From a virus: 64,000 bases of DNA. The stretch is taken from the IMG/VR virus record IMGVR_UViG_3300042923_000241, positions 13,757 to 77,756 of that record. One strand, given 5' to 3'. The notes beneath the pieces are model-generated. The model searched no databases, was not told the origin of the DNA, and worked only from the letters and a program-made list of their open reading frames with translations. Below, in pieces: positions 16,022 through 22,518 of the stretch. The translations under genes were made by a program, and so were the position numbers. Every line of letters starts with the position of its first letter. Position 1 is the first letter of the stretch.

Positions 16022-16127
16022 AGCGCATTGAGGAAGAACTGGCAACTTTCGCCCTCTGTCCAATCAAGCTGATGCTTATGTTTTGGGCAGAGTAGGAGAT
16101 GCAGGACTGTCACCCTGCCAATGCGCT
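16022..16127 (+). ncRNA. tRNA-like RNA with an extended anticodon arm
   Basis: closing stem AGCGCATTG/CAATGCGCT; D-like arm GAAG-AACTGGCAA-CTTT; long stem CTCTGTCCAA/TTGGGCAGAG; T-like arm GCAGG-8 nt-CCTGC. Confidence 0.55.
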
Positions 16128-18032: not shown

Positions 18033-18126
18033 CGCCCCTTTTGATTTGTACTCCTTGAAATGTGCCAGAAAGTAACTGTTCTGACACGCTTCAAGCGGTA
18101 CAAAGACCGCTTTTATTTACAGCGTC

Positions 18127-18336
18127 CTAGAAAACCAATTCTTTGTTGCCGATACTCTTTTGGTAGCGATACCAATTAACCATCATTGTTAAATCGCCAG
18201 GACTTATTTCTTCTTCGTAATCAACTAATCCGGACTTAGCGTTAAATGTAGTGAGTAATATTTTGCCGTCATATTGTTGCTGGGTTAATTGCATTGTTCT
18301 GCCGTTGTTAATTTCGGTTTCAATTTTGTTTATCAT
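18127..18336 (-). CDS. small hypothetical protein
   Basis: GGAGG RBS; ATGA overlap with the upstream gene. Confidence 0.6.
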   Translation of the reverse strand: MINKIETEINNGRTMQLTQQQYDGKILLTTFNAKSGLVDYEEEISPGDLTMMVNWYRYQKSIGNKELVF

Positions 18337-18966: not shown

Positions 18967-19059
18967 TTCATTACCTACCTTTCATTTTTACCATTTGTCA
19001 AGTGCCTACAAAAAACGTCTGTCTGTAGACCTTTGACAAGAGGTAAAAACCTCTTGAAA

Positions 19060-19272
19060 CTAACGCCGTTTATTAATGAGACAAGATTGGTGACCAAAAT
19101 AACTGTTGCAATTGTGTTGAGTCCAACCGCCGAGCGTTTGGCCGTTATGCTCATAATTAAAACTTTCTTCCTCATATTGTGAGTAAACTTCCGAAACCGG
19201 CTTTCCACAAACCTCACAGTTACCATATTTGCTGGACGATGCGCTTTGATTTATTAATCTGTAGCGGTACAT
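19060..19272 (-). CDS. small zinc-binding hypothetical protein
   Basis: YGNCEVCGK...FGHQSCL. Confidence 0.6.
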   Translation of the reverse strand: MYRYRLINQSASSSKYGNCEVCGKPVSEVYSQYEEESFNYEHNGQTLGGWTQHNCNSYFGHQSCLINKRR

Positions 19273-19348: not shown

Positions 19349-20122
19349 TCAGATAGTCAATGATTTCAGCTTTTCAATTACAGATTTTGCAGCGTATCTG
19401 CCGTTGCCGTTTAACATTCTGACCCATGCCATACGGCTAGGCGACCATTTGAAACCCCATGATTTCAGCAGTGATCTGATTTCGTCAGACGGTTTGCCGT
19501 CAAAGATAAACTGACAGCGATTGTCTTCCTCTTGATAGGTAAAGCCTTCATGCTTGACGGAAACTGGTTGACGTTCAACTTTTGCTTGCAGTTCTTCCAT
19601 GCGTTTTTTCGTTGCTCTGATAGTTGCGCCGTTGTTGGTGATTGTGTAACTTGCATAACCATATTGGCAACAATGGCTAGGTTTTTTCAATTCGGCAATT
19701 TGCGAATCAGTATAGCCGAGAGTGCGTAGCCCGTCAATGTCATTCTTTTTAAGCAGTTTATTCGCTTGTTTCATGCGCTCCTGTAGTGCTTCTAACTTTT
19801 CAAGTTTCGCTTGCAGTTTACTGATTGCGTCCTCATCGTCAGAGGATATGCCACCTTTGCCGACAGAAGCGGCTTTGTCTTCATAATGCTTGGCTTTATC
19901 GGAAGCTTCAAATGCCTTGCCGAACGTGTTGTGTATTTTGTTTCTAAAATTTCTGTCTCTGCTTTCGGAGTGATGACCCACTAAGATTGGTTGACCGAAA
20001 GGAATACATTCTGCCATTTTGTGTGCTTTTTGATAGAGTTGATTGGAGTCCTTGTTGGCTGATTCTGCTCTGCCTAAATACCTTTGGCGACGATCTTCTA
20101 GTTTTTGCTCGTATGCGTTCAT
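19349..20122 (-). CDS. DUF3560 domain protein
   Basis: IPFGQPILVGHHSE, ISSDDEDAI, FDGKP...GFKWSPSRMAWVR. Confidence 0.88.
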   Translation of the reverse strand: MNAYEQKLEDRRQRYLGRAESANKDSNQLYQKAHKMAECIPFGQPILVGHHSESRDRNFRNKIHNTFGKAFEASDKAKHYEDKAASVGKGGISSDDEDAISKLQAKLEKLEALQERMKQANKLLKKNDIDGLRTLGYTDSQIAELKKPSHCCQYGYASYTITNNGATIRATKKRMEELQAKVERQPVSVKHEGFTYQEEDNRCQFIFDGKPSDEIRSLLKSWGFKWSPSRMAWVRMLNGNGRYAAKSVIEKLKSLTI

Positions 20123-20245
20123 TTGTTTTTCCTCCTTACATTCTATGCTTCTTTCAGTAACCTTTTGGAGTAATTTTTTTGCCTCCTACTAAATGCCTAT
20201 ACAACTTCAATATAGACACTTAGCAAGCGGCAAAAACCGCTGCTT

Positions 20246-20623
20246 TTAAGCTGCTTTTCTGTATGTGTCGAGATAAAATTCTAAGTCTGCCGGAGATATG
20301 TCGTTATTAATTGCCTTGTCAATAACTACAGTGTAAGGCGTGCGTTTGTCGTTTATCGGCAGATAGTCCTGCATAATTAGCTTAGATTCATCATCGGCTA
20401 ACCAATTGAGAGAAACGCCGAGTATTTTCGCTAACTTAATAAGTGTTTCTAAACTGGGTTTCTTTCTGTCTGTTTCGAGGTGGTTCACGAATGAACGACT
20501 AAGCCTGAGTGCCTTGCCGAGTTCTTCCTGTGTAAGGTCTAGTTGCTTTCTAGCAAGATGGATTCTTTCGCCGAGTGACATATAGTCGATTGATGTGTTA
20601 ATTCCTCTTTGACATAGCTTCAT
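20246..20623 (-). CDS. XRE-family HTH regulator (repressor-like)
   Basis: LGERIHLARKQLDLTQEELG...ETDRKKPSLETLIKLAKILGVSLNWL. Confidence 0.9.
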   Translation of the reverse strand: MKLCQRGINTSIDYMSLGERIHLARKQLDLTQEELGKALRLSRSFVNHLETDRKKPSLETLIKLAKILGVSLNWLADDESKLIMQDYLPINDKRTPYTVVIDKAINNDISPADLEFYLDTYRKAA

Positions 20624-20900
20624 TGTTCAATACCTCCATTGATATATTTTAATTTGTCATATTGTTATTTAAGGTGTGTTTTGTGTCAACTAGCAAAAAC
20701 CTGCTTTTCCTACGCGAGTAGTATTCAGTCCTGGAATCTGCTAGTGGACACGTTGCGGCTTTGCAGTTAGTCGCCAACTATAAGGGTTCCTGCTATCGCC
20801 TTTACTCGCGGACTTTAGACCGCCGTTGGTAGGGTTACAGGGAGCCGAGTTAATCGGCTTGATGCCAGAGAGATACAGGCGGTTAGCCATGTACTCTGCG

Positions 20901-21131
20901 TTAGTAAATCGAGTTTATCAACTCTTGTATGTGGCTATTGTATTCTTTACTCTTTTGCTCTACAAAAGCATCTTCTAAGCTGTCATCGTTCCACAGTGCA
21001 GAGTCCATTTTCTGTAGTTCTGCGATTTCTGTTTTTACTTTTTGCTCAGTCTTTTTATCTACACTAATTTTTGCTCTGTTTGCTAATTGACGTTGCCAGT
21101 GTATCCTCATAAATGTTTCGCCAGTTGCCAT
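20901..21131 (-). CDS. small hypothetical protein
   Basis: AAGGAG RBS just 3' of the ribozyme; ATG at 21131. Confidence 0.6.
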   Translation of the reverse strand: MATGETFMRIHWQRQLANRAKISVDKKTEQKVKTEIAELQKMDSALWNDDSLEDAFVEQKSKEYNSHIQELINSIY

Positions 21132-21148
21132 AGACTTAACTCCTTTCG

Positions 21149-21203
21149 GCAGGACTTGTGACCTGCTCCTGTGCATTACCGGCCCGAAGGCCGTCACTCT
21201 GCG
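21149..21203 (-). ncRNA. twister self-cleaving ribozyme (circularly permuted, P5-type)
   Basis: minus strand CGCAGAGUGAC-GGCC-UUCG-GGCC-GGUAAUGC-ACAGGA-GCAGGUCACAAGUCCUGC has the twister cores UAAUGC, GGUCNCAAGNCC and GCAGAG, with a UCAC/GUGA pseudoknot. Confidence 0.7.
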
Positions 21204-21409
21204 ATTAGCTCAAAGTGTGGAATGTCATAGTCTGAATAGCAAAACTGCTGAATTTTACCTATTTCCATTGCGGCCTTTAACTCAGGGTCTTCATTAGCCA
21301 GAGCTTTAAGCCACTTGCTAATAGTAACCGCCATCGGATCAAATGCTGAGTTTCTGCATCTCTGGAAAACAATATTGTTTATGTTATTAACTTTTTCTTG
21401 CAATGTCAT
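21194..21409 (-). CDS. first gene of the leftward operon, hypothetical
   Basis: GGAGG RBS; immediately downstream of a strong promoter. Confidence 0.6.
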   Translation of the reverse strand: MTLQEKVNNINNIVFQRCRNSAFDPMAVTISKWLKALANEDPELKAAMEIGKIQQFCYSDYDIPHFELIAE

Positions 21410-21455
21410 CCTTACCGCCTCCGTTTGCTTCTTTCGTTCTCTTTATCTTGATATA

Positions 21456-21484
21456 AGTATAGCATAAGTGCTAGCACAATGCAA
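21456..21484 (-). promoter_or_regulatory. sigma-A promoter of the leftward operon with a palindromic operator
   Basis: TTGCAT-17-TATACT with an extended TG; GTGCTAGCAC palindrome in the spacer. Confidence 0.7.
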
Positions 21485-21518
21485 GCATAATTTAAGATAA
21501 AAAAATAGGAACTTTATC

Positions 21519-21698
21519 CTATTTCAATAAATTTTCAATCTCAGAAATGTATTTTTCTATAGCTGCCTTGGCGAAACTATTCTCACTGTAGTTAGCACCT
21601 GGACGGGACTTATTCAGTAGATCAGTCGCCTTCTGGATTCGATCTTTAATGTCTGAGTCTGCCGGGAATCTGGCATATATGACTGTGTACTTTGCCAT
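21519..21698 (-). CDS. ribbon-helix-helix-like regulator (59 aa; not in track)
   Basis: GAGGTG RBS; MAKYTVIYARFPADSDIKDRIQKATDLLN...SENSFAKAAIEKYI (strand-helix-helix pattern). Confidence 0.6.
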   Translation of the reverse strand: MAKYTVIYARFPADSDIKDRIQKATDLLNKSRPGANYSENSFAKAAIEKYISEIENLLK

Positions 21699-21827
21699 GC
21701 TGTCACCTCATACAGATTAGAGTATTAGCTCAATGATAGCACTTTGTTAGCATGTTGGCAAGAGGTTGCTAGTAATGGTATTTTGGTGGCTGGCAGCATA
21801 TAAGAATAGAGAGGGAGATAAGGCAAT

Positions 21828-22001
21828 ATGATTGATCGTAACAAATATCCTATATTGGGTTATGCGCCTGGGGATTATTTCTGTATATGCTGTATCTGTA
21901 ACCAACAGTTTATAGGCGATAAGAGAGCAGTACACTGTGAGCCTTGTGCTGTTAAGGGGCAACAGAGACTGATAGAGAATAGTATGGGGGCAGGGATATA
22001 A
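21828..22001 (+). CDS. small zinc-finger protein (not in track)
   Basis: GYAPGDYFCICCICNQQFIGDKRAVHCEPCA. Confidence 0.6.
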   Translation: MIDRNKYPILGYAPGDYFCICCICNQQFIGDKRAVHCEPCAVKGQQRLIENSMGAGI

Positions 22002-22490
22002 TGATCGACCACATAACGAATAACATAATGAATAACATTACAACAATAAATGATGGGTTTAATAAATACCCACTACTATACGCATTGATTATTTTGCTCT
22101 TTATTTCTCCAATCATTGGAGATGACGACTTCGATTAAATTGTTTGCGGATTAGACACAATTTAGATGTGGTTGAGAAATGTTAAAACGGATAGTTTAAA
22201 TGAGTGTTTAAAAACAAATGCTATTCATCGCGTTTCCTACCATGTGTATTGTCAAGTAAAACTACTTGACACCTATATATTTTATATTGTCAAGTAAAAG
22301 CGGTTTACGGACACAGCCTAGCATCAAACTAAAGTGGCATATCGCACACTTGACGCTCGGTTAATCAGATCAAAGTCACACTAAGCAGCAGTATTTGTAG
22401 TGTCAGCCGTGGACATTGCCTGATTTTACTTGTTATTGTTAACACATAATCATAGTAAACCCTGCAAGCCTTGATATTGCTGGATTCGTC

Positions 22491-22518
22491 TGTTTACACA
22501 ATCAATATTATCGGACGC
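22491..22518 (-). other. dif-like XerC/XerD recombination site
   Basis: minus strand GCGTCCGATAA-TATTGA-TTGTGTAAACA, 11-6-11 layout; right arm matches 9/11 to the Firmicute dif arm TTATGTAAACT as recalled. Confidence 0.6.

Follow-up and report, generated by a model that had tools for sequence, protein, structure and literature searches.

In the early mRNA of phage T7, the hairpins processed by RNase III lie between the stop codon of one gene and the ribosome-binding site (RBS) of the next. Clustered ribozymes have also been proposed to process polycistronic phage RNAs, both for the hammerheads of prophages in 2011 (PMC3088659) and for twisters (PMC6765202). In the prophage hammerhead clusters (Perreault et al. 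2011, PMC3088659), as at the locus described here, small phage genes that differ in identity have ribozymes between them on the coding strand, and long transcripts are therefore expected to be cut into gene-length mRNAs. The twister family is characterized by three essential stems, two pseudoknots, approximately ten conserved nucleotides, a U-A scissile step, and three permutations (PMC5408937, PMC6154101); the essential stems in the family definition are P1, P2, and P4, of which P1 is also described as dispensable (PMC5408937), and catalysis involves a guanine and an adenine (PMC6154101). The biological role of twisters is still called speculative (PMC5408937, PMC6765202).

A type-P5 twister in a leftward phage operon

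The window, i.e. the whole 64,000-nucleotide stretch of DNA that was analyzed, comprises bases 13757-77756 of an IMG/VR record of a complete virus (77,756 bp, with direct terminal repeats). The phage has a GC content of ~41%, and a search of sequencing runs located it in DNA from soil metagenomes and in no RNA run. Near and distant DNA searches of cultured phage records with the region 20000-22500 gave no match. The large terminase is <40% identical to Mu-like terminases from many hosts, and the relatives of the endolysin-like protein are mostly from Bacillota, the best being from a soil Bacillota metagenome-assembled genome (46%); from the latter, we would guess that the host is a Bacillota species. 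At the Rfam gathering thresholds, the window contains two RNAs only, a Twister-P5 and a skipping-rope RNA.

An earlier note on this DNA had proposed a permuted twister core and suggested a search with the Rfam covariance models (CMs), the lack of a hit to count against the proposal. The search was run with cmscan, and the Twister-P5 model (RF02684) matched at 52.2 bits, above its gathering cut-off of 37.6 (E = 5.7e-8), over model positions 1-58 of 58. The predicted cut falls at the U^A step given in the note, and when we counted the coordinates of the twister by hand along the minus-strand sequence, all of those in the note proved to be correct. As can be seen from this alignment, the order of the elements is that of the type P5 permutation; the conserved L1/L4 nucleotides GCAGAG, UAAUGC, and GGUCNCAAG are all found; and the upper-case CM consensus is fully matched, apart from the T2 G-C pair, which is A-U in the window copy. 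The minimum-energy fold of the isolated 55-mer consists of exactly P2, P1, and P4. In our own mapping, G21199 corresponds to the catalytic G45 of the Oryza sativa (O. sativa) twister.

The element thus shares with RF02684 (clan CL00120) the succession of the P2 3' strand, the G-A dinucleotide, T1, the P1 hairpin, U^AA, the P2 5' strand, T2, and a P4 hairpin with the GUCNCAAGNC loop, as well as the strongly conserved nucleotides, two formable pseudoknots, and a CM score above the cut-off. It differs from the model in that P2 has 3 bp, because model position 36 is absent; in that T2 consists of A-U/C-G and not G-C/C-G; and in that it lacks a contiguous P5 helix and has coding sequence at its 5' end. 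These three differences (P2, T2, and P5/coding end) are all common among the viral copies in the matches listed. Further, our own pseudoknot-aware descriptor, which needs UAA, GA, and the GU..AA loop together with pairing in P1, P2, P4, T1, and T2, recovers the twister at 21203..21150. With one P2 mismatch allowed, it gave 11 type-P5 and 4 type-P1 hits per 1000 dinucleotide shuffles of the window; over 353 kb of unrelated viral loci, the descriptor gave zero hits. The copy at 21203..21150 is the only twister above the Rfam threshold in the 77.8-kb genome, and scans of the remaining genome and, at relaxed thresholds, of the window turned up no ribozymes beyond it and a second candidate. We conclude that the element is a bona fide type-P5 twister, in which every family feature that can be tested from sequence is present.

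Table 1. Positions of the twister, its parts, and neighboring features in the window
Feature	Position	Strand	Basis and detail
Type-P5 twister (RF02684)	21149..21203; CM match 21203..21150	-	Rfam cmscan, minimum-energy fold, and covariation
P2 of P5 twister	G21202-C-A21200 with U21175-G-C21173	-	3 bp
Catalytic-position G, then A	G21199, A21198	-	Hand count
T1 strand	G21197-U-G-A21194	-	GUG(A) pairs with (U)CAC at 21161..21158
P1 of P5 twister	C21193..C21189 with G21184..G21180	-	5 bp, UUCG loop
Predicted cut site	U21178^A21177	-	Hand count
T2 strand	A21172-C21171	-	AC pairs with GU at 21155..21154
P4 of P5 twister	G21166..G21162 with C21153..C21149	-	5 bp, encloses GUCACAAGUC
Upstream 71-aa ORF	21409..21194	-	ORF list; ends GCA GAG TGA
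Shine-Dalgarno sequence AAGGAG of downstream ORF	21145..21140	-	Starts 3 nt past P4, ends 8 nt before ATG
Downstream 76-aa ORF	21131..20901	-	ORF list; ATG at 21131
Candidate extended -10 promoter TTGCAT-N17-TGcTATACT	21484..21456	-	By eye; ~40 nt upstream of 71-aa ORF
Perfect 10-bp palindrome GTGCTAGCAC in promoter spacer	21477..21468	-	Located by search
Two hairpins just after 76-aa ORF stop (TAA)	~20842..20903	-	Fold z -4.1, 0/200 shuffles as stable
Second twister candidate, compact type P1 without P3	20841..20789	-	Descriptor hit; sub-threshold in Rfam
Short hairpin plus ~18-bp long hairpin, three elements	18045-18130, 18985-19065, 20176-20250	-	Fold z -4.5 to -6.3
Skipping-rope RNA (RF02924)	16023-16126	+	Rfam 45.7 bits (cut-off 36.7); 33-nt insertion in one hairpin

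The twister lies between two small ORFs (Table 1). The last two sense codons of the 71-aa ORF make up P2 and the catalytic G, and its UGA stop (21196..21194) provides positions 2-4 of the T1 strand; both the sequence and the ORF list thus agree with the claim of the earlier note that the GUGA pseudoknot strand doubles as the stop codon of this ORF. The note was also right that P4 ends just before the AAGGAG of the next gene, the gap being 3 nt. The 71-aa ORF belongs to no Pfam or PHROG family, and its predicted fold is weakly winged-helix-like (from structure look-alikes in the Atlas, which are leads only); a lone viral "relative" was rejected as a chance match inside a longer protein. The 76-aa ORF is predicted to be helical, with a helical hairpin as its Atlas look-alike (again a lead only). 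A pattern scan found no relatives of this ORF, and a search of 5.8 billion proteins returned the ORF itself alone; one homolog, reached indirectly, is present on L171, a contig of a ~74-kb phage.

The promoter candidate upstream of the 71-aa ORF is missing from a consensus promoter scan because its -35 hexamer matches at 3/6 positions. If this promoter is real, the 71-aa ORF would be the first cistron. The palindrome in its spacer, which did not recur beyond chance elsewhere in the window, may be an operator for a nearby small DNA-binding protein. An AU-rich hairpin and a U-run follow a 59-aa ORF upstream of the promoter candidate; the consensus scan lists neither the promoter nor this hairpin with its U-run. 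3' of the 76-aa ORF are genes for an HTH_3 protein and a DUF3560 protein, and the leftward operon is one of small regulatory-type genes. None of the 47 viral loci that contain a homolog of the DUF3560 gene has a twister, and there is therefore no conserved pairing between this gene and the ribozyme. Three hairpin elements that contain no ribozyme punctuate the same operon, each extending from a few nucleotides after a stop codon to the next RBS, and look like RNase III-type processing or stabilizing sites.

The best explanation for the locus as a whole, and one that we consider likely, is that a P5 twister in a leftward operon separates two cistrons: most likely, the twister is predicted to cut the message shared by the 71-aa and 76-aa ORFs in two. 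Once fully transcribed and free of ribosomes, the 55-nt element would fold P1, P2, P4, T1, and T2, and the folded ribozyme would cut itself between U21178 and A21177. The upstream product would contain the whole 71-codon ORF with its UGA and would end 16 nt past the stop with a GGCC-UUCG-GGCC hairpin and a 2',3'-cyclic phosphate. The downstream product, which would encode the 76-aa ORF and whatever follows, would begin with a 5'-OH and have a 46-nt leader with the P4 hairpin and an exposed AAGGAG. The fate of RNA with a 5'-OH depends on the host, as this end is stabilizing where RNase E dominates and, for the Bacillus glmS product, destabilizing via RNase J1. The cistrons would be physically uncoupled, each with a defined hairpin-bearing end, and the other punctuation elements of the operon (the second twister candidate and the three long hairpins) would likewise give hairpin-bearing ends. 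The stop would come to lie inside the ribozyme because twister cassettes pack flush against the preceding stop and because T1, in its common U-A variant, reads UGA; wherever this UGA is in frame, it would become the stop. With family membership, geometry, covariation, and generality of the layout demonstrated, we infer that the RNA is cut in vivo, what becomes of either product, and how expression is affected.

Covariation, layout, and translation

Viral type-P5 twisters were collected from IMG/VR by searching for exact matches to the conserved blocks, which yielded at least 120 stretches with at least 146 copies, at least 135 of them distinct. Among the 146 copies in the matches listed, the middle pair of T1 is U-A in 90, G-C in 39, and A-U in 10, with 7 non-pairs. 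T2 in the same copies is mostly GC/GC, and AC with GU occurs in ~45, AC and GU always appearing together; 38 of the ~45 also share the 3-bp P2 of the window. The commonest continuation after UAAUGC in the matches listed is GGC with a loop ending in ..AAGCC (69 copies), and ACA with ..AAGUC is seen in 29, in addition to more AC/GU variants. The earlier note had seen GU in the loop and suggested that the AC after UAAUGC may compensate for it; AC/GU turns out to be a frequent natural covariant (~45 of the 146 copies in the matches listed). The contiguous P5 is 0-2 bp in most viral copies among the matches listed; the 3-bp P2 of the window copy and its lack of a P5 helix are both frequent in the viral sample.

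The triplet after GCAGAG is most commonly UGA (69/146 copies among the matches listed). We note that an A at position 10 is found in 69 of the 92 copies with U at position 8 and in 8 of the 39 with G (matches listed; Fisher p = 5e-7), and the UGA reading is therefore over-represented. The excess may stem from structure (an A10-U47 pair lengthening a weaker T1), from common ancestry, or from selection for a back-up stop. As a separate observation, arrays of type-P5 twisters at gene-length spacing are present on other viral contigs, namely L107 (12 copies), L021 (5 copies), L046/L079 (7 copies on one contig), L015, and L075.

The earlier note had drawn attention to the overlap with the stop codon and the abutment on the RBS. 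We surveyed the layout around the other viral type-P5 twisters, counting copies near which an ORF of 45 aa or more ends on the same strand. Among the matches listed, the upstream stop lies at most 6 nt from the first G of the ribozyme in 80 of 136 (~60%), compared with ~4.5% of decoy positions (1-8 per ~100). In 67 of these 80, the first base of the stop is 6 to 2 nt ahead of the initial G of GCAGAG, and in the other 13 copies it is at +6 (matches listed), i.e. an in-ribozyme UGA serves as the stop in 13 copies among the matches listed, as it does in the window. On the other side of the ribozyme, 103 of 138 copies (matches listed) have the start codon of the following ORF (45 aa or more) 10-34 nt past P4, and the leader of the 3' product, which is 46 nt in the window, has a median of 50 nt in the matches listed. 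The distance from the first base of the stop to the cut is 18 nt in the window, the shortest in the sample (matches listed). Hence, what had been singled out is the normal layout of phage type-P5 twisters and of the hairpins in the same operon. Because the hairpin elements without a ribozyme adjoin stops and RBSs as well, the geometry reflects compact packing of cassettes; this compact organization explains the positions of the stop and the RBS, and the geometry by itself does not argue for coupling to translation. From the earlier interpretation, we retain the permuted twister, its cut, the stop overlap, the RBS, and the T2 compensation, and we give up the special status of a layout that is the usual one; separation of the first cistron by self-cleavage, which the note had also put forward, is plausible.

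It is conceivable, and in our judgment unlikely, that ribosomes terminating on the 71-codon ORF cover the strands of P2, the catalytic G, T1, and P1 and that cutting takes place only when translation pauses or stops, such that cleavage, or the release of base-paired products, would be coupled to translation. The geometry is compatible with this: the stop is inside T1 and the cut is 18 nt away, so a ribosome at the stop covers the 5' half of the ribozyme and must sterically block its folding. In phage twisters, stops are also sharply clustered at the 5' edge (matches listed), which points the same way. After cleavage, the products would stay paired via P2, T1, and T2 until separated, and it seems quite unlikely to us that termination at the UGA in T1 controls the ribozyme in that the ribosome unfolds the 5' half or strips the cleaved products apart. 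If this were true, the yield of separated mRNA would track translation of the first cistron, and the clustering of stops would be selected rather than mere packing. However, the three reading frames relative to the ribozyme are evenly used among the 80 adjacent stops (27, 27, and 26; matches listed), as expected for flush packing rather than for a tuned overlap; in ~40% of the viral copies in the matches listed, no ORF of 45 aa or more ends nearby; and the hairpins of the same operon adjoin stops and RBSs alike without containing a ribozyme. Further, cleavage is predicted to occur at ~1000 per minute under physiological conditions (PMC6154101), and short ribosome-free intervals should thus suffice.

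RNA structures that might couple the two processes were also considered. A P5-like pairing between the upstream coding sequence and the downstream RBS was rejected as a general feature, as, across 143 loci, the real pairs were no better than permuted ones (p = 0.29), which argues against a conserved helix between these segments. The best such duplex of the window has -20.1 kcal/mol (top 6-8%), and pairing of this kind may, with low probability, occur locally in the window. In the minimum-energy fold of a longer transcript, GCAGAGUG / GCAGAGNG is sequestered by an upstream strand; this was likewise set aside, since such a strand is not enriched compared with control windows and the window ranks at the 23rd percentile, and no enriched upstream strand that would sequester GCAGAG was found. 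These tests, of a P5-like helix and of a sequestering strand, together with one of end pairing that was not significant, gave no structure by which cleavage would become dependent on translation, and we would place little trust in a regulatory gating of the ribozyme by translation.

Twister-like pieces and a second candidate

The contig with the homolog of the 76-aa ORF (L171; IMGVR_UViG_3300042922_000250) is part of a 73.8-kb phage. On this contig, the homolog is followed, at the orthologous spot, by a sub-threshold P5 twister (23.6 bits; 1044-1091). A well-preserved 5' half of a P5 twister lies flush with a TAA at 413-447, and no matching P4 loop follows it; a loop-like piece, GGUCACAAGC, is found at 757-790, ~300 nt downstream of the half-twister and past a 100-aa ORF. 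The two pieces represent either a decayed or a split twister. Elsewhere, the L171 genome contains one intact twister copy. In the window, the first of the two hairpins after the stop of the 76-aa ORF begins with CGCAGAGUAC, like the 5' end of a P5 twister, and this segment now makes up the 5' side of a stable hairpin. Judging from these sequences, twisters appear and vanish here on a short evolutionary scale.

These pieces bear on the view that the element in the window is an inactive relic, or a selfish or mobile sequence without a role in expression, that persists by being short and harmless or by serving as a recombination joint between phage gene cassettes. Twister-like fossils do lie nearby (the CGCAGAGUAC segment after the next stop and, on L171, the 413-447 half and the 1044-1091 copy), the 5' half of the window twister matches many unrelated metagenome contigs, and the flanking genes are not conserved together with the twister. 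However, unlike a decaying copy, the window element has kept all conserved positions and, through compensated changes, both pseudoknots, and we regard this view as very improbable. In an observation apart from the twisters, a tRNA-like match was noted at L123:1042-1108 (+), with 28.7 bits compared with the Rfam cut-off of 29.

The second twister candidate (Table 1) scored 24.1 bits with the Rfam twister-P1 model (RF03160) at 20841..20789 and did not reach the gathering score of 67.2 bits; this model expects a P3 stem and cannot credit compensated pseudoknots. The candidate has a P1 of CCUG/CAGG, with the UAA, GA, and GU...AA loop in place and a predicted cut at U20837^A20836. Both of its pseudoknots are compensated, with T1 as UAG/CUA for GGG/CCC and T2 as AC/GU, as in its P5 neighbor, and its P2 has one C-C mismatch that adjoins the active site. 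It is found by our descriptor, for which the chance rate is 4 type-P1 hits per 1000 shuffled windows, and its P3-less compact architecture also occurs in L050, L062, and L084. The P5 twister and the second candidate bracket the 76-aa ORF, and two cuts, if both ribozymes do cut, would release a 341-nt one-gene RNA (21177..20837). That two twisters excise this RNA and that an RtcB-type ligase of the host then closes it into a circular mRNA is extremely improbable: two active ribozymes would leave the right end chemistry (5'-OH and 2',3'-cyclic phosphate), and when the excised RNA is folded at minimum energy, its terminal 5 nt are paired with nt 6-10, but the end-to-end duplex of -12.1 kcal/mol is equalled by 9-14% of shuffled or random controls, the second candidate is sub-threshold with a mismatch beside its active site, and clustered phage hammerheads gave no circular or spliced products (Perreault et al., PMC3088659).

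Place among described systems

Separation of the two cistrons by the P5 twister thus remains the reading that we prefer. What speaks against it is that P2 has 3 bp and that there is no P5 helix, though both features are common in the viral sample (matches listed), and that the flanking ORFs are orphans and the related L171 has decayed twister-like pieces around the homologous ORF. Like the RNase III hairpins of T7, the element occupies the slot between stop and RBS and would give hairpin-ended products and separated cistrons; it differs from them in being predicted to be autocatalytic, with a 5'-OH and a 2',3'-cyclic phosphate as ends in place of a 5'-phosphate and a 3'-OH. The locus differs from the prophage hammerhead clusters in that predicted twisters (one P5 and one candidate P1), known from sequence, are mixed with long hairpins.

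Overall, we conclude that the window element is a clean further copy of a known ribozyme class and no new kind of biology, and that the phage layout of polycistronic processing by ribozymes has already been proposed in the literature since 2011. The survey quantifies this layout, in which, among the matches listed, the stop is flush in ~60%, the leader is ~50 nt, a P5 helix is lacking, and the two pseudoknots both covary. The locus itself offers a small system for experiments, in which a likely promoter and two small ORFs accompany one intact ribozyme, the catalytic strand of which shares sequence with a stop codon.
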